The notes beneath the pieces were generated by a model that was not told the origin of the DNA, searched no databases, and was given only the letters and a program-made list of their open reading frames with translations. The position numbers and the translations under genes are program-made. 36,370 bases of DNA from a virus (lineage: Duplodnaviria; Heunggongvirae; Uroviricota; Caudoviricetes), in the IMG/VR virus record IMGVR_UViG_2617270997_000026. One strand, 5' to 3'. Positions 1-36,370 of this stretch are shown here, piece by piece (within the stretch, counting starts at the first letter, position 1; every line of letters begins with the position of its first letter).

Positions 1-465
1 GGTTTGGGAGAAGGTTCTGCGTTGCCTGTTGGCGTACCAGTTCCTTGGCCTTCACCTACGCCGCCGACAGGCTGGCTGAAATGCAACGGGGCTGCTTTTT
101 CGGCTGAAGAATACCCGGAACTGGCAAAGGCTTACCCGACAAATAAATTGCCTGATTTACGCGGTGAATTTATTCGTGGCTGGGATGACGGACGTGGTGT
201 GGATGCCGGGCGACAATTATTATCTTCACAGGGGGATGCAATAAGAAATATTGAGGGATTCGCAGATGGCGGGATCGGCATGTCTTTTGATGCAATCAGA
301 GGGGCTTTTTACGATGCAGGAACACGATCAGCGACAATGGCGAATAACACAACTGCTATAGGCAAAACCGATGACCTTGGATTCGACGCCTCTCGTGTCG
401 TGCCAACAGCTAATGAAAACCGTCCACGTAACATCGCCTTTAATTATATTGTGAGGGCTGCATAA
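1..465 (+). CDS. Alternative tail-fibre C-terminal cassette (S'v-like), silent in this orientation, no own start
   Basis: Open frame from window edge. Codons 1-12 (G-L-G-E) match the LGLGE junction codons of the minus-strand fibre gene, so inversion fuses it in frame. Carries a PWP...GWLxCNG...LPDLRGxFIRGWD fibre-tip motif. Confidence 0.7.
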   Translation, partial: GLGEGSALPVGVPVPWPSPTPPTGWLKCNGAAFSAEEYPELAKAYPTNKLPDLRGEFIRGWDDGRGVDAGRQLLSSQGDAIRNIEGFADGGIGMSFDAIRGAFYDAGTRSATMANNTTAIGKTDDLGFDASRVVPTANENRPRNIAFNYIVRAA

Positions 466-1058
466 TGAAACCTGTTTTTGATGAAAATGGGATGGCTACA
501 GTGCCGGGTGATATGCGTTGTTATTATTATGATGCAGTAACGTCTGAATATACGGGCTGGTCTGATGAATATATTAATACTGGCGTAAGTATGCCCGCCT
601 GTTCCACTGGTATTGACCCGGGCGAATACATTCCGGGGCAAGTGGCAGTATTCACGGGTAAGGGATGGAGCCATGAAGAAGACCATCGCAATGAGACTGT
701 TTACTCAACAGAAAATGGCGCAGCTGTTACAGTGGATTATATCGGTGCCATCAAAGACGGTTATGTCACGCTTTCACCGTTAACGCCATACGATAAATGG
801 GATGGTGAGAAATGGGTGACGGATACCGAGGCACAGCATAGCGCCGCACTAGACGCGGCAGAAGTAAAGCGCCAGTCGCTGATTGATGCTGCAATGGCTT
901 CCATCAGTCTGATTCAGCTGAAATTACAGGCCGGGCGGAAGCTGACGCAGCCAGAAAACACCCGACTTAACGCTGTGCTGGATTACATTGACGCGGTGGC
1001 GGCAACAGATACCAGCACTGCGCCGGATGTCATCTGGCCTGAACTGCCGGAGGCGTAG
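465..1058 (+). CDS. Tail fibre assembly protein (U'-like), partner of the silent fibre cassette
   Basis: 197 aa immediately downstream of the alternative fibre C-terminus (ATGA overlap at 462-467); C-terminal DVIWPELPEA typical of tail-fibre assembly chaperones; convergent with the other copy. Confidence 0.75.
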   Translation: MKPVFDENGMATVPGDMRCYYYDAVTSEYTGWSDEYINTGVSMPACSTGIDPGEYIPGQVAVFTGKGWSHEEDHRNETVYSTENGAAVTVDYIGAIKDGYVTLSPLTPYDKWDGEKWVTDTEAQHSAALDAAEVKRQSLIDAAMASISLIQLKLQAGRKLTQPENTRLNAVLDYIDAVAATDTSTAPDVIWPELPEA

Positions 1059-1449
1059 GCCATTCAATATCTGGCGCACCGGAAGTATCGACCATTTCCA
1101 GTGCGTCCAGATAATCCAGCCACAAATTATATTGCGCCAGTTCCTCACCTTTCAGACGACCAATAGCCGCTTTACCAGGCCATTGTCTGCTGTTCATGTG
1201 CTCGTTGGCTTCATTAATAAGTTTTCCTTTTTTCAACTCTGCCAATGCAATAAGGTTTTCTTTTGATAAAGGTGGTTGCTCTGTCAAAACCGGATATCCC
1301 TCCTGATTGCTGACTATTTTCATGCCATTATCCTGACCATCCAGTAGTGACAGCCATTCATCCGTGGTTATCTCAACAGCATCTGAAGGTGCTTTATTTA
1401 AATCGGTAAAAAAACCATTTTCTTTTTGTGAATAGAAGTATCTGTCCAT
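1030..1449 (-). CDS. Tail fibre assembly protein (U-like), currently expressed partner
   Basis: 139 aa directly downstream of the fibre gene; C-terminal DIEWPTPP motif. Confidence 0.75.
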   Translation of the reverse strand: MDRYFYSQKENGFFTDLNKAPSDAVEITTDEWLSLLDGQDNGMKIVSNQEGYPVLTEQPPLSKENLIALAELKKGKLINEANEHMNSRQWPGKAAIGRLKGEELAQYNLWLDYLDALEMVDTSGAPDIEWPTPPAVQAR

Positions 1450-1452
1450 TTA

Positions 1453-3300
1453 TCAATCTCCAAAAGCAATCCAGTAAGCAAAAGGATTTACTCCTTGCTC
1501 AGTCACAGATGACATCAGGGAAAATTGCGATGGTGAAACAGGTAACGCTGCAAAACTAACCATTGTTGACACACCTGACCGTGCATTATCGTACGATGCA
1601 ACAACACAATAATTGGTATTGCTGAAAGATATCGGCAGGGGGATATTTACAGGTGAGCCTAATGGCCCTGATGCTGATATTCCCATTTGAATGATGGTTC
1701 CATCAGGCAATTTTCTCCAGCGATTAGAACTCGGATCTCTTTTCCAGGCTGACATATCCGGTATCTGATTTTCTCCTGTACCCACATCCCTTTTCGCCGC
1801 TTCTCCCAAACCAAGGTAATTGAGGACTTCTTTTATACTGCCCATAGCGATAATAGCGCGACCAATAGCTGTAAGGGTTGTCAGTGCTGCGCGGTCTGCT
1901 CCGGTAAAATAAGGCAACCGATCTGCTGCAGTGGCAAGTCCTGCCAGAGCAGTGAGCGTGGCATCTGCCGGTTGTTTTCCGTTTGCCAGATCGTATGCAG
2001 CCTTGACCGCTTTCGGTGTGGCGGCCAGTATTTCAGACGTGCTGTTGATGTCACTGCTCAATTGTACGGTGCCTTTTGCCGTCAGCGAGGCAGCAGGCAC
2101 TCCCGTTATCTGACGCCACGGGTGAGTGTGGCTGACGGGCGCCTTGCCGGCTGCAAGGTCGTATGCAGCCTTGACCGCCTTCGGCGTGGCAGCCTCAGTT
2201 TCTGATTGACTGTCCGTGGCGCTGCTCAGTTGTACGGTGCCTTTTGCCGTCAGTGAAGCCGCAGGCACTCCCGTTATCTGACTCCACGGGTGAGTGTGGC
2301 TGGCAGGCGCCTTGCCGGCTGCAAGGTCGTATGCAGCCTTGACCGCCTTCGGCGTGGCAGCCTCAGTTTCTGATTGACTGTCCGTGGCGCTGCTCAGTTG
2401 TACGGTGCCTTTTGCCGTCAGTGAAGCCGCAGGCACTCCCGTTATCTGACTCCACGGGTGAGTGTGGCTGGCAGGCGCCTTGCCGGCTGCAAGGTCGTAT
2501 GCAGCCTTGACCGCCTTCGGCGTGGCAGCCTCAGTTTCTGATTGACTGTCCGTGGCGCTGCTCAGTTGTACGGTGCCTTTTGCCGTCAGCGAGGCAGCAG
2601 GGACTCCCGTTATCTGACTCCACGGGTGAGTGTGGCTGACGGGCGCCTTGCCGGCTGCAAGGTCGTATGCAGCCTTGACCGCCTTCGGCGTGGCAGCCTC
2701 AGTTTCTGATTGACTGTCCGTGGCGCTGCTCAGTTGTACGGTGCCTTTTGCCGTCAGCGAGGCAGCAGGGACTCCCGTTATCTGACTCCACGGGTGAGTG
2801 TGGCTGACGGGCGCCTTGCCGGCTGCAAGGTCGTATGCAGCCTTGACCGCCTTCGGCGTGGCAGCCTCAGTTTCTGATTGACTGTCCGTGGCGCTGCTCA
2901 GTTGTACGGTGCCTTTTGCCGTCAGCGAGGCAGCAGGCACTCCCGTTATCTGACTCCACGGGTGAGTATGGCTGACGGGGGCCTTGCCGGCAGCCAGGTC
3001 ATATGCAGCCTTGACGGCCTTTGGTGTGGCGGCCAGCGTTTCAGAGGTGCTGTTGGTGGCACTGCTCAGTTGGGTGAACCCCTTAGCTGTCAGTGTCGCG
3101 TCCGGGTGGTTACGGGAACGTACGTGTTCAGCCAGTGACTGTGCGGCTTCCTCCGTTTTTTTCTTCAGCCATTTCGTCCTGTTTGCCAGTTGCCGGGGGG
3201 CTCGATTTGATATCCCGTCTGCACCACCCAGAACCGGATCTGATGTCTCCAGTTGATAGATATTTTCTTCCCACTTTTCTGTTTCATTCAGGTTTCCCAT
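1453..3300 (-). CDS. Tail fibre protein (constant N-terminus, repeat region, variable C-terminus)
   Basis: 615 aa from ATG at 3300 (track start 3306 is TTG); TGA of upstream gene 2 nt before. Seven SETxAATPKAVKAAYDLA-type fibre repeats, then conserved DATLTALAGL...RLPYFTG, then variable tip. Confidence 0.85.
   Translation of the reverse strand: MGNLNETEKWEENIYQLETSDPVLGGADGISNRAPRQLANRTKWLKKKTEEAAQSLAEHVRSRNHPDATLTAKGFTQLSSATNSTSETLAATPKAVKAAYDLAAGKAPVSHTHPWSQITGVPAASLTAKGTVQLSSATDSQSETEAATPKAVKAAYDLAAGKAPVSHTHPWSQITGVPAASLTAKGTVQLSSATDSQSETEAATPKAVKAAYDLAAGKAPVSHTHPWSQITGVPAASLTAKGTVQLSSATDSQSETEAATPKAVKAAYDLAAGKAPASHTHPWSQITGVPAASLTAKGTVQLSSATDSQSETEAATPKAVKAAYDLAAGKAPASHTHPWSQITGVPAASLTAKGTVQLSSATDSQSETEAATPKAVKAAYDLAAGKAPVSHTHPWRQITGVPAASLTAKGTVQLSSDINSTSEILAATPKAVKAAYDLANGKQPADATLTALAGLATAADRLPYFTGADRAALTTLTAIGRAIIAMGSIKEVLNYLGLGEAAKRDVGTGENQIPDMSAWKRDPSSNRWRKLPDGTIIQMGISASGPLGSPVNIPLPISFSNTNYCVVASYDNARSGVSTMVSFAALPVSPSQFSLMSSVTEQGVNPFAYWIAFGD
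1801..1826. other. hix/gix-like 26-bp crossover site for a serine DNA invertase, inside the tail fibre gene
   Basis: TTCTCCCAAACCAAGGTAATTGAGGA resembles hixL (TTCTTGAAAACCAAGGTTTTTGATAA) as I recall it, sharing the AAACCAAGGT core. It sits at the constant/variable junction of the fibre ORF; the partner half-site is at window start. Confidence 0.55.
1920..3095 (-). repeat. Seven tandem 168-bp (56-aa) in-frame repeats within the tail fibre gene; five central copies near-identical
   Basis: The string ttgtacggtgcc recurs at 2062, 2230, 2398, 2566 (spacing 168); further copies by period. Protein unit LTAKGTVQLSSATDSQSETEAATPKAVKAAYDLAAGKAPVSHTHPWSQITGVPAAS. Confidence 0.85.
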
Positions 3301-3302
3301 AA

Positions 3303-3881
3303 TCAACTGCTCCCGTGGTTATAACTGCCATCATGGATGGCGGTATTGTTATAGCGAATGGCCACAGACTGATACTCCAGGCTGGCCAGATGGCAGCGGG
3401 CCGGTGCAAATGCAGCCAGCGTCTGACGCAGCATCGCGGCCTGATCGTTAGTAATGGGCTGTTTCAGAATAACGCGATAAACTGCCCAGGCGGCTGCATC
3501 TCCATGAACAAACAGTCCGTTATAGCTGCGATTGCCGTCGTAACTGAGACGACCTGTGCCTTCAATCAGATCCACTTCACCAAAGCCAAAACGGCGGATA
3601 ACTTCCCGGATTGACCACGGCGTCCCTTTATACCGGTGCAGTTCGATGGCTGCTTTTATAAGCATGCGGCGAACATCGTCCGATTCCGCCAGCTCCCAGC
3701 CATCGCCAGACAGTGAGAACTGCTCGCCCAGCCATGGCAGCGCGGAACTGTCGACGATATCGACGAGAAAGACCATCAGTACGCTCAGGTCGATGTTATC
3801 CAGCCGTCCTGCCAGTCTTCCCAGCGTCCTGAGACTGATATCACCCTCAAGCGGTGGCGGGAGTTGTAATGGCTCAGTCAT
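3303..3881 (-). CDS. Baseplate/tail protein (P2 gpI-like, Mu gp48 position)
   Basis: 192 aa; ATG at 3881 verified; position between baseplate J-like gene and tail fibre; overlaps neighbours. Confidence 0.65.
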   Translation of the reverse strand: MTEPLQLPPPLEGDISLRTLGRLAGRLDNIDLSVLMVFLVDIVDSSALPWLGEQFSLSGDGWELAESDDVRRMLIKAAIELHRYKGTPWSIREVIRRFGFGEVDLIEGTGRLSYDGNRSYNGLFVHGDAAAWAVYRVILKQPITNDQAAMLRQTLAAFAPARCHLASLEYQSVAIRYNNTAIHDGSYNHGSS

Positions 3882-26608: not shown

Positions 26609-27595
26609 CTATTTAAGAATAAAACGGTATTTACTGTCAGGAGTGCTTTGCTGATCAAGTAGCAGTGAACGACATGGAGCAGTCAAAACCCGAGCATAAC
26701 TACCATCAGGGCTTATGTTAATGTAACAAACCTTGCCCTTAACACTATAATTTTCGGGGACGGATGCCTTTGCTGATACAGTAAATTTAAGGGTATGCCA
26801 GCCCGTTTTTTGCTTGTAGCTTGAAACCGAATGGAAATCATCTGAGTACTTATTTAACCCTGGAAACATGCTGCGCAGTGCGGGGATGGAATCTTCTATT
26901 ATTTTATCGTTGGTTTTAATGTTAAAAACGCTGGTTTCAGTAGAAGCTACTGCTTTGGCATTTCCCCATTTACCAGCGAACACAATCATTCCCACGAAAA
27001 ATATTGCTACAAGAACTAACACTCCCCCCAACACTACTACATGAGGCTTCCGGCTTCTGGTTGGTACAGTTGCGACTGATTTTGCACCGCTTTCCGATGG
27101 AGGTGATAGAGTTTTACTCTCATCACGAATATTCAGCAGATCATCAAAATAACCAAACACAGCCTGCAACTGCTCTTTGTCTAGGCCTTTAAGATGGGTT
27201 GTACCGAAATGCTTCAGACAGTATCTGTCACGGTCAAGACGATACCCAGGGTCAGTAAGCGCCATTATTTTGCTGACCAGAAGATTACAGTCCTTCATAT
27301 TCTGGATCTGTTGTGCATATCTCTGAAGGATCTCAACCGCACCATGATAATCAGCCGCAGTCATTTCATTAACTGTTTTGGTATTAAGTTTCGTGTGGAT
27401 CGTCATCCATAGCTCGCGCTTACTTTCCCCCAGATCAACCAATTCATCCATCAATCTGTGTAAATCGCGTTTTTGCAGCAACGAAATTGGTTGCTGGGCC
27501 GAAGGAAGTATGTCAGCAGAATAGTTATGAATGGTAACATCACCGCTGACAACGTTACCCACATCCCCGTTAACTGTTTGCTTCTCTTTACTCAT
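26609..27595 (-). CDS. Single-pass membrane protein (accessory, translationally coupled to repressor)
   Basis: 328 aa; ATG at 27595 overlaps repressor TGA (ATGA); one TM helix HVVVLGGVLVLVAIFFVGMIVFAG around residues 183-206; C-terminal about 120-aa extracytoplasmic domain with two Cys. Confidence 0.75.
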   Translation of the reverse strand: MSKEKQTVNGDVGNVVSGDVTIHNYSADILPSAQQPISLLQKRDLHRLMDELVDLGESKRELWMTIHTKLNTKTVNEMTAADYHGAVEILQRYAQQIQNMKDCNLLVSKIMALTDPGYRLDRDRYCLKHFGTTHLKGLDKEQLQAVFGYFDDLLNIRDESKTLSPPSESGAKSVATVPTRSRKPHVVVLGGVLVLVAIFFVGMIVFAGKWGNAKAVASTETSVFNIKTNDKIIEDSIPALRSMFPGLNKYSDDFHSVSSYKQKTGWHTLKFTVSAKASVPENYSVKGKVCYINISPDGSYARVLTAPCRSLLLDQQSTPDSKYRFILK

Positions 27596-28053
27596 CTTCT
27601 CTTGGTATTTTTGTTCATTATTCCACCTGTTCCTATGGTTACGTTACCTTTGATAACATTCCCCAGAACATCTCCATGAATAACCTGTTCCGCCCGTTCT
27701 CTGGAGGAGCCAGTAGTCAAGGCCGACAAAACTGAACCTTTGACCTGTAATGGTGCCTGCCGGTAGTGCTGCAGTAACTCCATTTCATCACGTGATAAAG
27801 TTATACCTGATGACTCCCCGGTAAGAATGAACTGTACATTGGCCCCAATTCTTGCAAAGGCTGCAAGTAACTCACCTCCGGGAACAGCAACCCCTCGTTC
27901 ATATTTCCCCCACATTTCTCTTGAAACGCCACAAAGGGCTGCTACTTCAGCCTGCTTGAGTGATAACCGCGAACGCTCAGCTTTGAACCGCGACGCGCAA
28001 AGAGAATCAAAATTCACATAAACCTCATTGACAATGAGAACAATAGTTCTCAT
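27592..28053 (-). CDS. Immunity repressor (XRE-family HTH, c/cI-like)
   Basis: HTH motif LSLKQAEVAALCGVSREMWGKYERG; divergent from ner-like early operon. ATG at 28053 has no SD (possibly leaderless); alternative GTG at 28017 with GAGG. Confidence 0.8.
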   Translation of the reverse strand: MRTIVLIVNEVYVNFDSLCASRFKAERSRLSLKQAEVAALCGVSREMWGKYERGVAVPGGELLAAFARIGANVQFILTGESSGITLSRDEMELLQHYRQAPLQVKGSVLSALTTGSSRERAEQVIHGDVLGNVIKGNVTIGTGGIMNKNTKRR

Positions 28054-28103
28054 AATCTATCACATATAAAACAAACATCATTGCATCAACAAAGGAGACA
28101 ACA
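28054..28103. promoter_or_regulatory. Immunity switch region (divergent repressor/early promoters, operators expected)
   Basis: 50-bp AT-rich spacer (ctatcacatataaaacaaacatcattgcatcaac) between divergent repressor and ner-like starts. Confidence 0.45.
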
Positions 28104-28292
28104 ATGACTTCCGAACAAGTTAAAAATCTCTTCCGTCAGCGTGGTATCACGTTTACCCGCTGGGCCGAAGAACACGGCTACAGCCGCAATGAGGTCTATC
28201 GTGTTCTCAATGGACAGACCAAAGCTCGTTACGGCAAAGCCCATGAAATTGCCGTAAAACTGGGATTAAAACCCACGTCAAATGCGGCATAA
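28104..28292 (+). CDS. Ner-like small DNA-binding regulator (first early gene)
   Basis: 62 aa; AAGGAG RBS; motif WAEEHGYSRNEVYRVLNG...GKAHEIAVKLGL consistent with Ner/Nlp-type HTH; position as Mu ner. Confidence 0.55.
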   Translation: MTSEQVKNLFRQRGITFTRWAEEHGYSRNEVYRVLNGQTKARYGKAHEIAVKLGLKPTSNAA

Positions 28293-28344
28293 ATTTTCCA
28301 CATATGCAACAGGTTATCACATATTGCAAAAATGGAAATGTGAC

Positions 28345-28653
28345 ATGAGTAAAGTAAATATTTCCAGTTCTGGGACCCGCATCCTACGTGTACTCAAAGC
28401 TCTACGCGGTCATGCTCTGAACGGTGTTTCTAACGGTGAACTGGCATCAGCCCTGGGGGAGTCCCCGGCGAATATCAATCGAGCACTTAATACCCTTATT
28501 GAAGAGGGACTGGCCATGAAATTAGAGAACGGACGTTTCGCACCGGGAATCCAGTTACTACAGATCGCCATGGCTCACAGTCACGAGATGGCGCGTGCAC
28601 AGGATCGTATTAACGAAATCAACCAACGAGTTATTTCAGGTAGTCGTTTGTAA
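28345..28653 (+). CDS. Putative winged-helix DNA-binding protein
   Basis: About 103 aa from ATG 28345 (track start 28282 overlaps ner-like gene); RILRVLKALRGHALNGVSNGELASALGESPANINRALNTLIEEGLA resembles IclR/MarR-type wHTH. Start uncertain. Confidence 0.45.
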   Translation: MSKVNISSSGTRILRVLKALRGHALNGVSNGELASALGESPANINRALNTLIEEGLAMKLENGRFAPGIQLLQIAMAHSHEMARAQDRINEINQRVISGSRL

Positions 28654-28663
28654 GGAGTAATCA

Positions 28664-29578
28664 ATGGGACGCACCAAATCACCCGTTAACACTGAACTGA
28701 ATGTTGAGGTTCCGCTGTCAGATAACATCAATGTCAATTTGAACGCTATGACACAGCATCGCATGGAAATTATGCAGCAGTTTGGTGATGGACTGCCTTA
28801 TGAACGTGATCGCATTGTTCACGAAGCACGTTTTTATATGGCGCAGAGTGCTGAATCTATGCTGGAAGCGGGTAAGCGGCTGATCATCTTAAAAGAAAAT
28901 GAGCCACACGGTGATTTTACAAACATTTTAGAAAATGAACTCGGACTTGCACCACAAGTTGCTCGCCGCATGATGCAAGCCAGTATGAAGTTTTTGGGAG
29001 AAGGTGATGAGCCAACAAAACGCTCAACGTTGAGCGTTTTGGGGAAAGCCAAACTGTACGACCTGATGGTTCTGGATAATGAAGAACTTGATGAATTGGC
29101 CGACGGCGGCACAGTTGCCGGCCTGACGCTTGACGACGTTGATCGCATGTCAGTACGTGAATTGCGTCAGGCCCTGCGCGAAGCGCGCGAAACCAACGCA
29201 GCACAACAGCGCGTACTCGCTGACAAAAATGAAAAAATAGACTCACTCTCCACCAGACTGGAGAAGAAATCCCGTATTCAGTCGCCTGAGCCTGATGAAG
29301 AGGTTAAGAAGCTGCGGGCGGAAGTGACAGCATTAGCGGTTGAGGCGGAATCTGCTATCGCCGTTCGACTGTCCAGCGCTTTTGAGACGCTGTGCGCATA
29401 TTGTGCTGAAAACATGATTGATACCCCCAGAGACTTCATGGCAGGCCTGGTCTGTCAACTGGAAAGCACAGCGCGTAGCCTGCGCTCCACATTTGACCTG
29501 CCGGATGAGCCAACAGGCAATGCCGCGCCTTCATGGCTGACTGAGCCGACGCCACAGATTAACGGGCTGGAGGCATAA
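28664..29578 (+). CDS. Conserved early protein, function unknown (possibly DUF3102-like)
   Basis: 304 aa; AAGGAG RBS; helical and acidic; immediately upstream of transposase. Confidence 0.55.
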   Translation: MGRTKSPVNTELNVEVPLSDNINVNLNAMTQHRMEIMQQFGDGLPYERDRIVHEARFYMAQSAESMLEAGKRLIILKENEPHGDFTNILENELGLAPQVARRMMQASMKFLGEGDEPTKRSTLSVLGKAKLYDLMVLDNEELDELADGGTVAGLTLDDVDRMSVRELRQALREARETNAAQQRVLADKNEKIDSLSTRLEKKSRIQSPEPDEEVKKLRAEVTALAVEAESAIAVRLSSAFETLCAYCAENMIDTPRDFMAGLVCQLESTARSLRSTFDLPDEPTGNAAPSWLTEPTPQINGLEA

Positions 29579-29581
29579 CCA

Positions 29582-31351
29582 ATGAATGCTGCCCTGACTG
29601 AACGACTGGTTTATGTCGCCCGCGCGGCACGTGACGCGGGGCATGGTAAACGCGGTGCAATATACGACGCTGCCTGTGCTGAACTTGGCATGTCCCGCGC
29701 CACTCTGCTGCGCAGGCTGAAGGAGGTCTCTGTGACTGATAAACGCAAAAAACGCGCTGATGCCGGACGCAGCGCCCTGACCCGCGACGAAGCCGCGCTG
29801 ATATCTGCCACACTGCGTGAGGCCACCCGCAAGAACGGTAAACGCCTCTATTCCATCGCAGATGCAGTGGAAACCCTGCGGGCTAACGGCTTTATCACCG
29901 CAGGCAGAACAGATGAAACCACCGGTGAGTTTTTCCCGTTGTCTGAAGATGCCATCAGCCGTGCTCTGCGTAACTATGGCCTGCACCCGGAACAACTGGA
30001 TGCTCCTGCACCGCATACCGAAGTGGCCAGTCTGCACCCCAATCATGTCTGGCAGATTGACGCCTCACTCTGCACGCTTTACTACCTGAGCAATGGACAT
30101 AAAGGGCTGCAGGTGATGGACAGCGCGAAGTTCTACAAGAACAAGCCCGCTAACCTTGCCCGTATCGCCAGTGACCGCGTGTGGAGTTACGAGATTACCG
30201 ACCATGCCAGCGGCTGGATTTACGTTGAGTATGTGACGGGCGCGGAATCAGGTGAGAACCTGTGTTCTGTGCTTATCAACGCCATGCAGGAGCGTGGCGG
30301 CGCAGACGTGCTGCACGGCGTGCCAAAAATACTCTATCTCGACCCCGGCTCGGCAAACACCGCGGGTATGACGAAAAACATGTGCCGCTCACTGGGCATC
30401 GACCTGATAGCGCACAAGCCGCATAACGCCCGCGCCACCGGACAGGTGGAAAAGGCGCGGGACATTATCGAACGCAAGCTGGAGCCGGGTCTGAAGTTCC
30501 GGCCGGTTCACAGTCTGGAAGAACTCAATGCGCTGGCCGCGAAATGGCGCAGCCACTTTAACGCCACGGCTGTTCACAGCCGCCACGGTAAAACCCGCAC
30601 GGATATCTGGCTGAAGATTACTGCTGAGCAGCTGAAAAAAGCGCCTTCCGTTGAGGTATGTCGTGAACTGGCTGTGGCGGCACCAGAACTCCGCAAAGTC
30701 ACGCCAAAACTTCGTGTCTCGTTCCGGGGCACTGAATTTGACGTATCAACGGTACCGGGCGTACTGGTCGGTGAAAAACTGATGATTACCCGTAACCCGT
30801 GGCGCAGCGATGTGGCACAGGTGGTTCTGACCGGTGAGGACGGCCACGAGACGTTCTTCCTGGTCGAAGAAGTCAGAAAGAACGAGTTTGGCTTTGCTGA
30901 AGGCGCGGCGGTATTTGGCGAAAGTTACAAAGCCCTGCCGGAAACCCCGGCGCAGATGGCGGCAAAAGAAACCGAAGCGCTGGTCACCGGTACAGACAAC
31001 GCCGCAGATGCAGCTGCCGCACGCAAGGCGAAGGCGCTGCCGTTCGGCGGGCGGCTTGACCCATATAAACATATTGATGACGCCACACTTCCGGCCTATA
31101 TGCCGAAGCGAGGTCAGGCCTCTGACGTACGCGGGCCGCGCACTGAACAACGTCCCATGACTCATGTGGAGGCCGCGAAAGCCCTGCGCGATAAGTTCAG
31201 CGCCGACGGCCTTACCTGGACGCCGGAACATTACCGCCAGTTAACGGCACAGTATCCGGACGGCGTACCGGAAGCCGCACTGGATGAAGTCATGGCCACG
31301 CTGACCACGCCGGCCCGCAGCAGCGTTATCAGCATTGTTAACGGCAACTGA
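29582..31351 (+). CDS. Transposase, DDE / retroviral-integrase-fold (Mu A functional equivalent)
   Basis: 589 aa; GGAGG RBS; catalytic triad candidates HVWQIDAS, ILYLDPGSANT, TGQVEKARD with typical rve spacing; followed by AAA+ helper gene. Confidence 0.8.
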   Translation: MNAALTERLVYVARAARDAGHGKRGAIYDAACAELGMSRATLLRRLKEVSVTDKRKKRADAGRSALTRDEAALISATLREATRKNGKRLYSIADAVETLRANGFITAGRTDETTGEFFPLSEDAISRALRNYGLHPEQLDAPAPHTEVASLHPNHVWQIDASLCTLYYLSNGHKGLQVMDSAKFYKNKPANLARIASDRVWSYEITDHASGWIYVEYVTGAESGENLCSVLINAMQERGGADVLHGVPKILYLDPGSANTAGMTKNMCRSLGIDLIAHKPHNARATGQVEKARDIIERKLEPGLKFRPVHSLEELNALAAKWRSHFNATAVHSRHGKTRTDIWLKITAEQLKKAPSVEVCRELAVAAPELRKVTPKLRVSFRGTEFDVSTVPGVLVGEKLMITRNPWRSDVAQVVLTGEDGHETFFLVEEVRKNEFGFAEGAAVFGESYKALPETPAQMAAKETEALVTGTDNAADAAAARKAKALPFGGRLDPYKHIDDATLPAYMPKRGQASDVRGPRTEQRPMTHVEAAKALRDKFSADGLTWTPEHYRQLTAQYPDGVPEAALDEVMATLTTPARSSVISIVNGN

Positions 31352-31361
31352 GGAGGGATAC

Positions 31362-32528
31362 ATGCTGGTACTGAAGCAGCAACTGAAAGAGGCCCGTATT
31401 CCACAGGCGGTGGTGGCGAGAGCTGTCGATGTTTCTGAGGCCACGCTGGCCCAGATTGTGAATCATAACGCGTGGCCCCGCACCAGCCCCGGAGAAGTGC
31501 GCCGGCGTCTTGCGTCCTGGCTGGAAAGTCAGGGGATTGATACAACGAAGAGTTTTGATGCTGTACAGGGCGCGGCCACGCCCCGTACAGCGGGTACCAC
31601 AGATAAAACGAGCCTCAGTGAGGAAGAGAATATGTTACTCAAAAAACAGGTGTTATTTCCAGCAACCAAAAAAGCGTTTGGTCTTTTCCGTGACCCGTTC
31701 GCCGACGAAGCCATGCAGGGTTCTGATGATGTGTTCACCACTCCGGACATTCGCTACGTGCGTGAGGCGCTGTACCAGACAGCCCGTCATGGTGGGTTTA
31801 TGGCCGTCATCGGTGAGTCCGGTGCGGGTAAATCCACGCTGCGCCGTGACCTGACTGAACGTATCAACCGCGAGAATGCGCCGGTGATTGTTATCGAGCC
31901 ATACATCATCGCTATGGAAGACAACGATGTGAAAGGGAAAACCCTGAAGGCAGCAGCGATTGCCGAAGCCATTATCAGTACCATCGCACCACTGGAAAGC
32001 ATCAGACGCAGTCAGGACGCCCGCTTTCGCCAGCTGCATCGCGTCCTGAAAGACAGCAGCCAGGCGGGGTTCAGCCACGTTCTGGTGATTGAGGAGGCCC
32101 ACAGTCTGCCCATTCCGACACTGAAACACCTCAAACGCTTTTTTGAGCTGGAGTCCGGTTTCAAAAAACTGCTGTCCATCGTACTGATTGGCCAGCCGGA
32201 ACTGGCGACAAAACTGTCTGAACGCAATATGGAAGTCCGTGAAGTCGTTCAGCGCTGTGAGGTGGTCGAACTTCTGCCTCTGGACAATAACCTTGAAGAG
32301 TTTCTGACGTTCAAACTGCAACGGGCCGGTAAACAACTGACGGACATTATGGACGCCAGCGCAGTGGATGCCATACGTGCCCGCCTGAGCAATCCGGGAA
32401 GTCATCGTAAAAATATGGTCAGCCTGCTGTATCCGCTGGCCGTCAGTAACCTGGTAATAGCCGCCATGAATCTGGCCGCTGAAATCGGGGTTCCACAGGT
32501 CAACGCTGACGTTGTCAAAGGGGTTTAA
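31362..32528 (+). CDS. Transposition helper ATPase (MuB-like AAA+ protein)
   Basis: 388 aa from ATG 31362 after GAGGAGGG; N-terminal HTH-like segment, Walker A GESGAGKST, Walker B VLVIEEAH; directly downstream of transposase. Confidence 0.75.
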   Translation: MLVLKQQLKEARIPQAVVARAVDVSEATLAQIVNHNAWPRTSPGEVRRRLASWLESQGIDTTKSFDAVQGAATPRTAGTTDKTSLSEEENMLLKKQVLFPATKKAFGLFRDPFADEAMQGSDDVFTTPDIRYVREALYQTARHGGFMAVIGESGAGKSTLRRDLTERINRENAPVIVIEPYIIAMEDNDVKGKTLKAAAIAEAIISTIAPLESIRRSQDARFRQLHRVLKDSSQAGFSHVLVIEEAHSLPIPTLKHLKRFFELESGFKKLLSIVLIGQPELATKLSERNMEVREVVQRCEVVELLPLDNNLEEFLTFKLQRAGKQLTDIMDASAVDAIRARLSNPGSHRKNMVSLLYPLAVSNLVIAAMNLAAEIGVPQVNADVVKGV

Positions 32529-32530
32529 TA

Positions 32531-32800
32531 ATGAAATCCACCACAGGTATCAACCAGCAAATCAGCAAAGTGCAGTCAGCCATTATGGCGCTTAAGGCGA
32601 CGAACACGGATGTACAAAGCATCACCATCAGGGGTAACAAACCTGTCATCCGCGTTTCCCGGAGTGCGCATTGCATGCGCATGCTTGAGCAGGGAAAGGC
32701 CTGTTATCTGTATACCGGACATGACCACAGGGGATATTTCCGTCAGGGCGTTTTCGAACTGCACGGCTGTCGCGTCGTGTGGCCGGAATCTTTGTGGTAA
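32531..32800 (+). CDS. Hypothetical early protein (Mu kil position)
   Basis: 89 aa immediately after B-like gene; no recognisable motif. Confidence 0.5.
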   Translation: MKSTTGINQQISKVQSAIMALKATNTDVQSITIRGNKPVIRVSRSAHCMRMLEQGKACYLYTGHDHRGYFRQGVFELHGCRVVWPESLW

Positions 32801-32827
32801 TCAGCACAACTGGAGAAATCATAAAAA

Positions 32828-33358
32828 ATGGCAAAAAGTACAAAAGGTGCAAAACGTATCAAGGCCGCAGCAGCACTCTGGGTGCCGGGGACACGTGAAG
32901 AGGTCATTGAGGGAATCAGACTACTCGGTGACGCACAACGTGAACTGGTCAGGGCTGAAACAGAAATGAATGACGCCATTGGCGATATCACCGCACGTTA
33001 TGCCCCGCTCACCGAGAGCCTGAAAAAACGCATGGCCGAACTGCAGTCCGGTATTCAGACATGGTGTGAGGCACACCGTGATGAACTGACCGGCAACGGG
33101 AAGGTGAAGTTCGCTAACCTCACCACCGGCGAGGTGCAGTGGCGAAACCGTCCGCCATCAGTCAGTATCCGTGGGGCGGATAATGTTATTGAATTACTGA
33201 GACGTCTGGGGCTTGAGCGCTTTATTCGTGTAAAAGAGGAAATAAATAAAGACGCTATCCTGAATGAAAAAGAGGCCGTGAAAAATATTCCCGGTATTTC
33301 CATTAAAAGCGACATTGAGGATTTTTCAATAATTCCTTTTGAGCAGGATGTGCAGTAA
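32828..33358 (+). CDS. gam: Host-nuclease inhibitor Gam (Mu Gam-like, Ku-like DNA end binding)
   Basis: 176 aa; MAKSTKGAKRIKAAAA... N-terminus and C-terminal SIRG..LGLERFIR.KEEINKDAIL...IEDFSIIPFEQ closely match Mu Gam as I remember it. Confidence 0.8.
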   Translation: MAKSTKGAKRIKAAAALWVPGTREEVIEGIRLLGDAQRELVRAETEMNDAIGDITARYAPLTESLKKRMAELQSGIQTWCEAHRDELTGNGKVKFANLTTGEVQWRNRPPSVSIRGADNVIELLRRLGLERFIRVKEEINKDAILNEKEAVKNIPGISIKSDIEDFSIIPFEQDVQ

Positions 33359-33455
33359 ACACACCACGTTAATTATTTAATAAAAACATTTTCTTTTTTA
33401 TTCCGGCGTCAGCGCCGCGGGCTTCTGCACGCCGGAAACAGAGGAGAATTAAATC

Positions 33456-33650
33456 ATGATATTTAAATGTATTCAGTGCGAGAGGGATATAACAGCCCTG
33501 CGTTTTCACAGCGCCATCGCCGTGATGTCCGGTAAATACCACATCCCTGCGGTACGCGTCACCCTGGTCTGCCCGTACTGCAGCCAGCATTTTTCGGCAG
33601 ACGTGCCCGTCATGGAATTCTCCCGCCCTGACAGGGAGGACTCGCAATGA
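33456..33650 (+). CDS. Small zinc-ribbon protein
   Basis: 64 aa; GAGGAGAA RBS; CxxC (CIQC) and CxxC (CPYC) pairs. Confidence 0.5.
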   Translation: MIFKCIQCERDITALRFHSAIAVMSGKYHIPAVRVTLVCPYCSQHFSADVPVMEFSRPDREDSQ

Positions 33651-33919
33651 TTACCCCACAGGAAGCACGACAGCGCACCCGAACCCTTGTTGAACACTAT
33701 GTCAACGAGTGTGAATGCCGCGACCTCACCGATGTGAAGCACGTCCTGACGGCGCTAATCAGCATGACCGCTCAGGCCATTGTGGCGACCAACGGAAAGG
33801 CGGCTGCCCTGCAGGTACTGGTGAACACACTCACCCACACGGCAGAGCATGAGGTGCCGTACCGGATGGAAACCACTGCAGAAGGCGGCCTGCACATCAC
33901 CGTCAGCCGGAAGCACTGA
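33647..33919 (+). CDS. Hypothetical early protein
   Basis: 90 aa; ATGA overlap with upstream gene. Confidence 0.45.
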   Translation: MITPQEARQRTRTLVEHYVNECECRDLTDVKHVLTALISMTAQAIVATNGKAAALQVLVNTLTHTAEHEVPYRMETTAEGGLHITVSRKH

Positions 33920-33928
33920 GGGCGCGGC

Positions 33929-34225
33929 ATGACACGGAACACCATACTCACCCGCACCGCCCTCTACCGTCTGGCCCTGCAGCGTTTCGGGCCGGACGCA
34001 CAGGCCCTGAAACTGACAGAAGAGGCCGCTGAACTGGCGGCCAGTGCTGCCCGCAATCTGAACGGACAGGGCAGCGAAAGTGACCTCGCGGCAGAGCTGG
34101 CAGACGTGGAAATCATGACAGAGCAATTGCGCCTTCAGGGGATGGACCGGCTGATTGACTTCCACAAACAGAAAAAACTGGAACGTCTGGCTGCACGACT
34201 GGGCGTGATTTACACGAACGAGTAA
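33929..34225 (+). CDS. MazG-like all-alpha nucleotide pyrophosphohydrolase family protein (putative)
   Basis: 98 aa; GAGGG RBS; motifs KLTEEAAELAASAAR and AAELADVEIMTEQL match EExxE / ExxD metal-binding helices of small MazG/HisE-type NTP-PPases. Confidence 0.5.
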   Translation: MTRNTILTRTALYRLALQRFGPDAQALKLTEEAAELAASAARNLNGQGSESDLAAELADVEIMTEQLRLQGMDRLIDFHKQKKLERLAARLGVIYTNE

Positions 34226-34239
34226 CCGGGAGGCATTCA

Positions 34240-34455
34240 ATGGCTGACATACTCAGGGAAATCACCGCATGGACACTGATTCTTACTGGCCTGGCGACAT
34301 GCCTCAGTGCGGGGGCAGCCCTGGCTGCCCTGCTGATGCACATAACAACACAGTGGTTATGGGAAAAGCTTAAAGCAGCATACAGCCTGAAAGAGCTGTC
34401 CGACGCTGTCCGGGCATGGAAACGGCAGAAAAATACCGGAGATACAGAACAATGA
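34240..34455 (+). CDS. Small membrane protein
   Basis: 71 aa; GGGAGG RBS; one TM helix ITAWTLILTGLATCLSAGAALAALLM. Confidence 0.45.
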   Translation: MADILREITAWTLILTGLATCLSAGAALAALLMHITTQWLWEKLKAAYSLKELSDAVRAWKRQKNTGDTEQ

Positions 34456-35135
34456 CAGACCAGAATAAACACATTGAGAAACTGAAAAAGTTGCTGGCGC
34501 TGGCCGCATCCGGCAACCCGCACGAGGCCGCTCTGGCACTGCGCCGAGCCCGTAAACTGATGGATGTTCACGGCATCACACATTCCGACATTGCTATGAG
34601 TGATATTGATGAAACCATCAGTCATTACTGGCCGACAGGCAGTCTCCGTCCACCGCGCTACATGCTGGGCCTGATGAACATCATCCGCGAGGCATTTGGT
34701 GTTAACTCCATCATTCACCCCGGCACGCATCCGTCTGTGGGGTTCTACGGTAACCGGGAACGAGCGGCACTGGCTGCGTACACCTGGGAAGTGCTGGTCC
34801 GCCAACTGAAAAAGGCGCGTCAGCAGTATATCAGCGCACAGAACAAAAGAATAAAAAACGCCACCCGTACCAGCCGTGGAAACCAGTTTGCTGAAGGCTG
34901 GGTACTGGCCGTTATCAGTGAAATACAGTCCTTTGCCCTGACCGATGATGAGCGTGAACTGATGCAACAGTGGCTGGAACATAAATACCCGCAAACGCAA
35001 ACCACCAGGGCGCGTAAACCGGGAAGAAGCCGCAATGGCGACGCCTCGCGCTATGCGGGGTTTCGTGAAGGGCAGAACGTCAGACTGCACCGCCCGGTCA
35101 GTGGGCAGGAACAACAGAAACTGGAGGCCAGATGA
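34452..35135 (+). CDS. Hypothetical early protein (DUF2786-like N-terminus)
   Basis: 227 aa from ATG 34452 (ATGA overlap with upstream stop); N-terminal IEKLKKLLALAASGNPHEAALALRRARKLM. Confidence 0.5.
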   Translation: MTDQNKHIEKLKKLLALAASGNPHEAALALRRARKLMDVHGITHSDIAMSDIDETISHYWPTGSLRPPRYMLGLMNIIREAFGVNSIIHPGTHPSVGFYGNRERAALAAYTWEVLVRQLKKARQQYISAQNKRIKNATRTSRGNQFAEGWVLAVISEIQSFALTDDERELMQQWLEHKYPQTQTTRARKPGRSRNGDASRYAGFREGQNVRLHRPVSGQEQQKLEAR

Positions 35136-35362
35136 TTACGCTATCAGGTAACAGCCGGAAATTAAAAGCCTGCCGAATATCTGCCAGATACCTTTTTGCC
35201 CGCGCCTTTTTTAAGAACGTCAGGCCGGGGATCACAATTGGTGTTATTGCCGGACGCGAACAGGTTGAAAAATACATGTCAGGTGCATGGTGGAATAACG
35301 ACCCTGTCATTGCTGCCCGTAATATTCATATCAGTTGGGGGGATATTCAGAATGACGGCTGA
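35132..35362 (+). CDS. Hypothetical small protein
   Basis: 76 aa; ATGA overlap with upstream gene. Confidence 0.4.
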   Translation: MITLSGNSRKLKACRISARYLFARAFFKNVRPGITIGVIAGREQVEKYMSGAWWNNDPVIAARNIHISWGDIQNDG

Positions 35363-35567
35363 ATCTGTTGTATGTGCCCTGTTCTGGTATTGTTTTGTCG
35401 GTTGGTGTACTGCTGAACTGCACCGCCGTTCAGGGTTTTATTCACGTTACAGTGGTGCCGGCTACTGGATTAGCTGGTCGGTGATGTTCCTGTGCTGGCC
35501 TGTGGCGCTTCCTTTATATGTCGATTATATCGGTGGCGCAGGTAAAAGGAGCAACGATGATGACTAA
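35352..35567 (+). CDS. Small two-TM membrane protein
   Basis: 71 aa from ATG 35352 after GGGGGG; hydrophobic segments VVCALFWYCFVGWCTA and YWISWSVMFLCWPVALPLYV. Confidence 0.4.
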   Translation: MTAESVVCALFWYCFVGWCTAELHRRSGFYSRYSGAGYWISWSVMFLCWPVALPLYVDYIGGAGKRSNDDD

Positions 35568-36009
35568 ACAACGTCTTATCCAGCTCATTCATATTGCCCG
35601 TAATGAACTGGGTATGGATGAAGACACCTACCGCCAGATGTTACAGGGGCTGACCGGTAAAGCCTCAACCAAAGGAATGGATACCACACAACTAAACTGC
35701 GTGCTGGAATCCATGAAAAGGAAAGGCTTTCGCGTTAAGCCTGCCGGAAAAGCCAGCTCCGGTTTACCGCTGGATAACCATCCGCAGTCCAGGAAAATCC
35801 GTGCGCTATGGCTTGAAATGGCTGCTGCCGGCATTGTTCGTGACCGTTCAGAAAATGCATTAGCGCGGTGGATCAAGCGGGAAACGGGCATCAGCGCCCT
35901 GCGCTGGCTCAATACTGAACAGGCAAGCAGTGTTATTGAGAAACTGAAGAAGTGGCAGCACAGAGCTGCGGGAGTAAAACATGAGCGACCTGAATCAGTT
36001 TCGAAGTAA
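35557..36009 (+). CDS. GemA-like protein (Mu gp16 family)
   Basis: 150 aa from ATG 35557 after AAGGAG; N-terminus MMTKQRLIQLIHIARNELGMDEDTYRQML typical of GemA-like proteins; directly upstream of Mor-like gene as in Mu. Confidence 0.6.
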   Translation: MMTKQRLIQLIHIARNELGMDEDTYRQMLQGLTGKASTKGMDTTQLNCVLESMKRKGFRVKPAGKASSGLPLDNHPQSRKIRALWLEMAAAGIVRDRSENALARWIKRETGISALRWLNTEQASSVIEKLKKWQHRAAGVKHERPESVSK

Positions 36010-36370
36010 AGGGCCGGAACTCCTGGTGGAACTGGCACAGCATACCTCTGAGACCGTTCGCGAGATTATTGATATTGAGCCCGCAATTGCCGACCAGATT
36101 GGTCAGGCCGTCGCGAACCGCATGATGCAGGTCTGGGGCGGGCAAAACGTTTATTTCCCGATGGGCATGGTATGGAAGGTCAGTCAGCGCGACCGGGAAA
36201 TCTTCAGGGAGTTTAACGGACGTAACCACCATGAACTGGCCCGCAAATTTGGTGTTTCGCTTCAGTGGGTCTACAGCGTGGTTAAGCGGGTAAGAAAAGA
36301 AGAACTGGATCGGATGCAGGGCAAGCTATTTGCTGATGAACCCGATGTAGATACGGAGAAAAAAGAGTAA
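35981..36370 (+). CDS. mor: Mor/C-family transcription activator (middle-operon regulator-like)
   Basis: 129 aa, complete; GGAG RBS; C-terminal HTH-like ELARKFGVSLQWVYSVVKRVRK; size and position match Mu Mor. Confidence 0.7.
   Translation: MSDLNQFRSKGPELLVELAQHTSETVREIIDIEPAIADQIGQAVANRMMQVWGGQNVYFPMGMVWKVSQRDREIFREFNGRNHHELARKFGVSLQWVYSVVKRVRKEELDRMQGKLFADEPDVDTEKKE

Follow-up and report, generated by a model that had tools for sequence, protein, structure and literature searches.

The left end of the window, as we call the whole 36,370-bp stretch of DNA analysed here, is occupied by a tail-fibre gene and by two sets of fibre-tip and chaperone genes (Table 1). The fibre gene runs on the minus strand (1453-3300) and is annotated in the source record with an ATG at 3300 and a product of 615 aa; this ATG, rather than the TTG at 3306, is most likely the true start. 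The constant N-terminal part of the fibre, Sc, is transcribed together with the baseplate genes upstream and carries a shaft of 56-aa repeats, which lies outside the switch discussed below and sets the length of the fibre, relatives varying by multiples of 56 aa. The expressed tip, Sv, comprises 115 aa (plus stop) after the residues GLGE, or 119 aa if the four residues encoded by a recombination half-site are counted. Convergent with Sv and its chaperone gene U, a second fibre C-terminal cassette and assembly gene lie on the opposite strand, as the first-pass annotation had proposed: a silent Collar-domain tip, Sv', and its chaperone gene U', which overlaps U by 29 bp. Sv' lacks its own start codon ahead of the site; its length is exactly 150 aa, rising to 154 aa if the half-site-coded GLGE is counted, and it is complete because the cassette begins at the site. 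The domain content of the segment, a pair of fibre tips and a pair of Caudo_TAP chaperones in convergent arrangement, is that of the segments of Mu, P1 and e14. Rfam and tRNA scans across the window gave no matches.

Table 1. Features of the tail-fibre locus, with the predicted left flank and the junction sequences of both orientations (positions refer to the window)
Feature	Position	Strand	Evidence or detail
Sv', silent alternative tip, phage tail Collar domain	1..465	+	PF07484, E 1.9e-15; phrog_523 tail collar fiber
U', tail-fibre assembly chaperone paired with Sv', 197 aa	465..1058	+	PF02413, E 5e-26
U, tail-fibre assembly chaperone paired with expressed tip, 139 aa	1030..1449	-	PF02413, E 1e-25
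Sv, expressed variable tip, gp53-like C-terminal domain	1453..1812	-	PF21882
Sc, constant N-terminal part of tail fibre, 496 aa	1813..3300	-	seven Phage_fiber_2 repeats
Tandem repeat of fibre shaft, 168 bp (56 aa), 6.5 copies	1984..3072	-	
Fibre-proximal crossover site	1801..1826		strand-exchange dinucleotide 1813-1814; repeat search, site comparison, homology breaks
Inner half-site GGTTTGGGAGAA of invertase-proximal crossover site	1..12		outer half-site and central TT left of window
Predicted left flank			transposon end ...GCGGCGCATCA, 573-bp invertase gene, then ...GAGAGATAAACGTT
Junction 40-mer Sc|Sv			tcctcaattaccTTGGTTTGGGAGAAgcggcg
Junction 40-mer Sc|Sv'			tcctcaattaccTTGGTTTGGGAGAAggttct
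Junction 40-mer invertase|Sv'			gagagataaacgTTGGTTTGGGAGAAggttct
Junction 40-mer invertase|Sv			gagagataaacgTTGGTTTGGGAGAAgcggcg

The boundary between Sc and Sv coincides with a 26-bp sequence, TTCTCCCAAACC AA GGTAATTGAGGA, which has the 12 + 2 + 12 bp organization of a serine-invertase crossover site and lies inside the minus-strand fibre reading frame, where it codes for ...LNYLGLGE. That the fibre frame crosses a site of the Hin/Gin/Cin kind had been noted from the letters of the sequence, and the comparison with the sites in the e14 (NC_000913), P1 (NC_005856, annotated cixL and cixR) and Mu (NC_000929) records bears this out for pix, cix and gix: the 14 nt made up of the inner half-site and the core, TTCTCCCAAACCAA, recur unchanged in both pix sites of e14, differ at 2 positions from both cixL and cixR, and align with gix of Mu. 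The inner half-site itself, GGTTTGGGAGAA, is found just twice in the window when up to 1 mismatch is allowed, at 1801-1812 on the minus strand and, as an exact copy in the inverted orientation previously described, at 1-12 on the plus strand; the exact inverted repeat extends to 13 nt (1-13 versus 1800-1812). A chance origin of the repeat was rejected, since shuffled sequence contained on average 0.09 matches to the 12-mer and the position, strand and reading frame of the copies all fit. Only the inner half of the left site falls within the window. Inspection of the source to the left of position 1, as suggested by the first-pass annotation, supplied the central TT; the source contig, JOND01000217.1 (assembly GCA_000711595.1), ends there, 2 bp left of the window and inside the crossover core, before the outer half-site is reached. 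In relatives carrying an identical segment the full left site reads GAGAGATAAACG TT GGTTTGGGAGAA, so that two inverted sites with imperfect 12-bp half-sites share the same core dinucleotide.

A shufflon, in which the tyrosine recombinase Rci acts on several 19-bp sfx repeats to shuffle the pilus-tip exons of pilV, was considered and set aside. The core has only two copies in the window, the cassettes encode phage fibre tips and not pilV, and the recombinase next to the segment in relatives belongs to the serine resolvase family. A multi-segment arrangement based on extra sites was likewise dropped: with as many as 3 mismatches allowed, the 14-mer had 5 matches, a number at chance level (3.15 expected), and they lay at senseless positions.

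Turning the segment over in silico produced an uninterrupted fibre of 650 aa, the C-terminus of which is identical to that of the annotated fibre of E. coli CP035832. The in-frame exchange of tips that had been predicted is thus confirmed, whereas the sizes given for them, 116 aa and at least 155 aa, have to be corrected to 115/119 and 150/154 aa. To an annotator, the 'orphan' Collar-domain ORF at the left end and the second chaperone gene are the unexpressed half of a fibre gene that has two states.

Both states occur in nature. Among related prophages the same segment, 99.9% identical, was found in both orientations, and comparison of 14 loci showed the four junction types to be exact reciprocals of one another at the 14-bp core; the loci in which Sc continues into Sv' are L002 and L004-L012. 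The clearest case is a pair of assemblies, L012 and L013, which share the same insertion site and have flanks that are 100% identical over 1,283 and 4,092 bp, and in which an interior of 1,786 bp is 100% identical yet inverted. The exact Sc-Sv junction of the window was absent from all 5,426 complete E. coli genomes when a match was required to cover 80% or more of a 240-bp probe, so the expressed combination is uncommon, and it recurs in the draft assembly L013. The corresponding probe for the flipped junction matched 602 complete E. coli genomes, mostly at 80-90% identity, that is, in other phages. The idea of an orientation bias was abandoned, as the exact silent Sv' gene, in the orientation of the window, was present in 40 blocks and many backbones. 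Looking up the 100-aa silent Sv ORF by its exact sequence gave no match, for which a single-nucleotide difference between the segment of the window and that of the relatives is a likely reason.

The invertase gene had been placed just left of the window. Within the window itself, the right part of which encodes Mu-like early genes, no ORF of the resolvase type was seen, and the source contig stops short of the place. In related, nearly identical E. coli prophages, however, the prediction holds in 11 of the 11 loci inspected (L001, L002/L005, L004 and L006-L013): an intact gene for a serine invertase of 190 aa lies directly beyond the distal site. The protein has a Resolvase domain (PF00239) and an HTH_7 domain (PF02796), possesses Ser9, is a match (E about 1e-93) for two structures of Gin, 3UJ3 and 4M6F, and shows 72.6% identity to Gin, 75.5% to PinE and 71.5% to Cin. 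In the relatives the end of the prophage follows 77 nt past the invertase stop codon, and the prophage of the window is expected to run about 0.75 kb past the contig end, through the remainder of the site, the invertase gene and the transposon end. In systems of this class a Fis-bound recombinational enhancer acts in cis, usually from the 5' part of the gene for the invertase. Over the length of the enhancer annotated in P1 cin, the relatives' gene agrees with cin at 54 of 72 nt, and at 54-57 of 72 nt when cin, gin and pinE are all compared, a similarity that is confounded by conservation of the coding sequence. Two 15-mers of the form G-N13-C keep their positions among L002, gin and pinE, and cin has just the second one in the same place. 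Inversion here may likewise depend on Fis and an enhancer.

Among the closest known systems is the switch formed by the P segment and PinE of e14, a cryptic prophage of E. coli K-12. The inner half-site and core are the same (TTCTCCCAAACC AA), within a common 16-mer TTGGTTTGGGAGAAGG, and the invertase-side site likewise has CGTTTAT at the start of its outer half, although the outer half-sites otherwise differ. The layout (Sc, then Sv-tfa, a convergent tfa-Sv' and pin) and the 29-bp overlap of the chaperone genes are shared as well, and the stfE/tfaE DNA of e14 is 85% identical to window positions 1-241 and 89% identical to 777-1197. In contrast to e14, which is a defective lambdoid element with a short StfP, the element described here is complete, a transposable prophage of the BcepMu-like kind that has a contractile tail of P2 type and an Sc of 496 aa with 6.5 copies of the 56-aa repeat. 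With the G segment and Gin of Mu it has in common that a transposable phage has the invertase gene close to the very end of its genome, beside the fibre genes, and the same Sc/Sv-U/U'-Sv' logic. The gix sites of Mu, however, form a 34-bp inverted repeat with a GA/TC core and other half-site bases (TTCCTGTAAACC GA GGTTTTGGATAA), the inverting segment of Mu measures 3 kb compared with 1.8 kb here, com and mom follow gin whereas the relatives of the present element end shortly after the invertase, and the early region has the opposite orientation to that of Mu. The C segment and Cin of P1 provide sites of 12 + 2 + 12 bp with an AA/TT core, and cixR (TTCTCTTAAACC AA GGTATTGGATAA) resembles the fibre-side site of the window, including the GGTA at the start of the outer half. 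P1 differs in being a plasmid prophage with a 4.2-kb C segment and far larger tips, and the two positions that separate its inner half-site from the one described here are CC in P1 and TT in the window.

A further comparison is offered by the Mu-like prophage of EPEC strain E2348/69 (locus 2749478-2751398, NC_011601.1; Goldberg et al. 2014, PMC4272514), in which the coexistence of both orientations has been measured experimentally from sequence reads, 60 +/- 8% of the segments in clonal cultures being in the forward orientation (Table S1 of PMC4272514). Its inverted repeat (AAACCTTGGTTTGGGAGAA) has the same core and invertase-side outer half, the layout likewise combines a gp53-like with a Collar tip, and the U' gene is 94% identical to that of the window. 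This prophage differs in having a true Mu-type tail module and a much shorter constant part of the fibre, and the invertase gene adjoining its segment is a remnant of 93 nt. Pin-family invertases thus act in trans, and because the E2348/69 segment flips with a mere remnant beside it, the lack of an adjacent invertase would not by itself refute a switch.

Taken together, we put the probability at about 90% that window positions 1-1826 serve a BcepMu-like transposable E. coli prophage as its invertible tail-fibre segment, operated by a serine invertase of the Gin/Cin/Pin/Hin class. The switch is of the ordinary textbook type represented by Mu Gin, P1 Cin and e14 Pin and, as such, already known. 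A serine invertase of ~190 aa, encoded about 70 bp past the left site and just beyond the contig, would pair the two inverted 26-bp sites and cut both at the central AA/TT dinucleotide, and rotation and religation would then turn the ~1.8-kb segment over. The sole promoter and start codon are expected to be those belonging to Sc (3300 down to 1813), the segment itself being presumably devoid of an internal promoter, so that just the cassette joined to Sc would be made. The present orientation would yield the 615-aa Sc-Sv fibre with the gp53-like tip together with chaperone U, and the inverted one the 650-aa Sc-Sv' fibre with the Collar-domain tip, accompanied by U'. Induction from one state or the other would then give virions with different receptor-binding tips, and inversion may change the host range.

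This account presumes that the invertase is present and active in the source strain, which is probably the case. It could alternatively be that the locus is a frozen relic, in which the adjacent invertase has been lost or broken by deletion, IS insertion or truncation and the fibre is locked as Sc-Sv. The source contig ends inside the site, and decay does occur in relatives: CP025856 (L007, L021) has an IS66 within the segment that disrupts U, and E2348/69 has retained the mere remnant mentioned above. We nevertheless regard a relic as improbable, given that the invertase is intact in every one of the 11 loci carrying this segment, that the half-sites lying within the window are both perfect and that both cassettes are intact ORFs. 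Moreover, since invertases act in trans and E. coli often has several such loci (a median of 2 places per genome match the region), loss of the neighbouring gene need not lock the fibre.

A quite different possibility is that the GLGE-coding 14-mer is merely a mosaic boundary, a joint for homologous or illegitimate exchange of modules, with the copy at position 1 as a by-product. Homology to hundreds of E. coli genomes does stop exactly at 1800/1801 or 1814/1817, and the Sv'-U' cassette is found with the same protein sequence in unrelated prophage backbones. However, module exchange at the site is also expected of an invertase site and compatible with one, while a mere joint leaves unexplained the exact reciprocal inversion between isogenic loci, the invariably adjacent invertase and the flipping measured within cultures at the same core; we consider this explanation highly improbable. 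An identical Sv'-U' cassette adjoins an invertase gene in prophage backbones of several kinds, BcepMu-like, Mu-gp48-type and P2-type among them; from this and from the breaks in homology one might tentatively propose that the 1.8-kb segment is a portable module that uses its own crossover site as a joint for transfer between unrelated phages, although we think this less likely than not. Invertase-mediated exchange between co-resident prophages, and not homologous recombination, could then be what spreads the tips. Exchange of fibre modules at such joints is an old idea, and the portable-module reading, if true, would be an incremental result.

For genome annotation, the locus implies that short-read assemblies may break or misjoin here. 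The end of the source contig is the leftmost base common to two junction types, and its position may record heterogeneity of orientation in the sequenced culture. Beyond annotation the importance of the finding is small: it adds, for the BcepMu-like phages of E. coli, one more documented case of the classical bet-hedging host-range switch.

The tail-fibre gene is the last of a minus-strand contractile-tail module (tape measure, gpU, gpX, gpD, gpV, gpW, gpJ, gpI), and inside its frame sits a 26-bp site, TTCTCCCAAACC AA GGTAATTGAGGA, at 1801-1826, coding for ...LNYLGLGE. The reverse complement of 1801-1812, the 12-mer GGTTTGGGAGAA, has its sole other copy in the 36 kb on the plus strand at 1-12, against a mean of 0.09 matches in shuffled sequence; the exact part of the inverted repeat is 13 nt. 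The first-pass annotation, which had placed an inverted inner half-site at 1-12 and had the fibre cross 1801-1826, was therefore correct on this point. Four genes lie between both site copies in a classical convergent layout. When the constant N-terminal part of the fibre, Sc (3300 down to 1813), was fused in silico to 1-465, an unbroken 650-aa fibre resulted, bearing out the proposed in-frame tip swap. The second tip is thus in frame as claimed, but the lengths given for the tips (116 and at least 155 aa) do not hold. The tips measure 115/119 and 150/154 aa, with a second cassette that is complete.

Features of the fibre switch and of the transposition module
Feature	Coordinates	Strand	Description
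Tail-fibre gene	1453-3300	minus	615 aa, counted from the ATG start of the source record
Sv, tip joined to fibre	within 1453-3300	minus	115 aa after GLGE; gp53-like C-terminal domain
U, chaperone of Sv	1030-1449	minus	Caudo_TAP
Sv', second tip	1-465	plus	begins exactly at half-site; 150 aa after GLGE; Collar domain
U', chaperone of Sv'	465-1058	plus	Caudo_TAP
rve-type transposase	29582-31351
AAA+ partner	31335-32528

U and U' converge with a 29-bp overlap (1030-1058), and the identical overlap occurs in e14 and E2348/69. An imperfect 23-nt inverted repeat (977-999 versus 1098-1120, 78% complementary) arises because the homologous C-termini of the chaperones are encoded on opposite strands. The fibre shaft (1984-3072, in the minus-strand gene) is a 168-bp (56-aa) tandem repeat of 6.5 copies with 94% matches. 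Fibres of otherwise near-identical prophages measure 615 and 503 aa in the Sv orientation and 538, 482 and 426 aa in the Sv' orientation, differing within each orientation by whole multiples of 56 aa; either the repeat copy number varies or short-read assemblies collapse the repeats.

A megablast search of 5,426 complete E. coli genomes shows homology breaking off exactly at the site: matches to the backbone begin at 1800/1801, and those to the segment stop at 1814/1817. CP035832 carries, within the same prophage backbone, a segment 99.9% identical to that of the window but in the opposite orientation, with the order fibre Sc-Sv' (538 aa), then U'. Past its silent Sv lie a site, TTCTCCCAAACC AA CGTTTATCTCTC, and then a 190-aa 'recombinase family protein' that combines a Resolvase domain with HTH_7, has serine as residue 9 and gives E-values of about 1e-93 against the Gin crystal structures 3UJ3 and 4M6F. 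The invertase of the relatives shows 72.6% identity with Gin, 75.5% with PinE and 71.5% with Cin. An exact look-up of the U' protein retrieved ten loci (L004-L013), all with the invertase on the far side. U' points the same way as the fibre and baseplate genes in nine of them (L004-L012), and L013 has the window orientation; the Sc|Sv' junction is found throughout the nine except in L007 (CP025856), a multi-cassette variant in which the copy of Sv' stands as a gene of its own, preceded by another site-like junction. All core copies extracted sort into four kinds of junction, namely Sc|Sv, Sc|Sv', invertase|Sv' and Sv|invertase, whose reciprocity is exact across TT/AA and the 12-mer. In the draft assemblies L012 and L013 the prophage occupies the same insertion site, with flanks 100% identical over 1,283 and 4,092 bp and an interior of 1,786 bp that is 100% identical yet inverted. 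Since a shared insertion site of a transposable phage implies common descent, the inversion occurred in place. The finding is real, and its original interpretation as an invertible segment was right.

More complex arrangements were also seen. CP025856 (L007/L021, 5520-10050) has an IS66 element within its U gene and, ahead of an additional Collar cassette, a third site-like junction, cataaaaacgTTGGTTTGGGAGAA; cS51a (L001, 4000-5550) has two Collar-type cassettes in tandem and lacks a chaperone gene after the expressed fibre. These segments may represent multi-inversion or scrambled states. In L019-L027, an identical 153-aa silent Sv' gene and 197-aa U' adjoin 182-187-aa invertases in unrelated prophage backbones with Mu gp48-type, P2 gpI-type or Phage_Wedge1-type baseplates, some with tyrosine integrases, which indicates that the cassette moves between phage types.

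The source contig, JOND01000217.1 (GCA_000711595.1), to which the fibre was assigned by exact protein match, starts TTGGTTTGGGAGAA, window position 1 being contig position 3. It reaches no further than the dinucleotide in the middle of the left site (TT plus inner half-site; L003, 9289-9302), so that the outer half-site and everything beyond are missing from the available sequence. The window opens with the first in-frame codon and closes, at 36370, with the stop codon of a gene of the Mor family, so the window limits look like gene-based boundaries of a provirus call. The contig end is the exact base where both junction types start sharing sequence. This break could reflect a culture of mixed orientation, but a repeat-induced assembly break (e.g. 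at a repeated invertase gene) explains it equally well, and it is therefore not counted as evidence.

The prophage in the window is transposable and BcepMu-like. Besides the transposase and its partner, the region 27592-36370 codes for GemA and Mor, and the early region diverges from the late genes. A stretch of the window also matches the Gam gene annotated in Pseudomonas phage H72. Escherichia phage PhiKM (classified Bcepmuvirus) aligns to 90% of the query stretch 11400-36370 with 97.7% identity. The end of the element in relatives, ...GCGGCGCATCA (...CATCA), lies 77 nt beyond the stop codon of the invertase, with two CATTTATCGC repeats near it, which places the switch at the extreme end of the element, much like gin in Mu. 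At least six different host sequences flank that end (L001-L013, beyond the invertase gene), which fits transposition.

Sites for comparison were taken directly from database records (e14 from NC_000913). On the fibre side e14 has TTCTCCCAAACC AA GGTTTTCGAGAG, and towards pinE it has TTCTCCCAAACC AA CGTTTATGAAAA; the window site has its entire inner half and core in common with both. The annotated P1 sites, cixR (TTCTCTTAAACC AA GGTATTGGATAA) and cixL (TTCTCTTAAACC AA GGTTTAGGATTG), differ from the window site at two positions of the inner half; gix of Mu is TTCCTGTAAACC GA GGTTTTGGATAA. In the invertase gene of the relatives, the stretch annotated as Cin enhancer in the P1 record is identical to cin, gin and pinE at 54-57 of 72 nt, a likeness that is only suggestive because the same region codes for the conserved catalytic N-terminus.

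The sites, frames, cassette identities, invertase of the relatives and reciprocal natural junctions observed here are best explained by a working Pin/Gin-type switch, to which we assign a probability of about 0.9. The main alternative, a locus frozen in the source strain by loss of the invertase, is improbable, given that the gene is intact in 11 of 11 relatives and that action in trans is documented. At the EPEC E2348/69 'Mu' prophage locus, with inverted repeat AAACCTTGGTTTGGGAGAA, 60 +/- 8% forward orientation was reported in clonal cultures (Goldberg et al. 2014, PMC4272514, Table S1). This locus (L018, NC_011601.1) has the same core as the window, cassettes of the same kind and a U' gene 94% identical, so inversion at the same core sequence has already been measured experimentally. 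Beside its segment lies only a 93-nt invertase remnant (L018, 8461-8553), which implies that inversion there is driven in trans by an invertase of another prophage. Such sites can thus be served in trans, and the refutation proposed in the first-pass annotation, absence of an adjacent invertase, is weakened. That the site is purely a mosaic joint is more improbable still, as this would leave the inversion between isogenic loci unexplained.

Such a switch is a textbook system, already known, and many genomes and phage records carry it as an annotated feature. In ST131 isolates, a phiE255/BcepMu-like prophage with an invertase and rearranged fibre genes is described in a 2026 preprint (10.1101/2022.05.07.487787). 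The invertase, presumably present and active in the source strain and putatively dependent on Fis and an enhancer, would synapse both sites and exchange strands at the AA/TT core. Inversion of the segment, which is predicted to lack a promoter of its own, would join Sv-U and Sv'-U' in turn to the one constant part that is expressed, yielding virions with two receptor-binding tips and, presumably, affecting host range.
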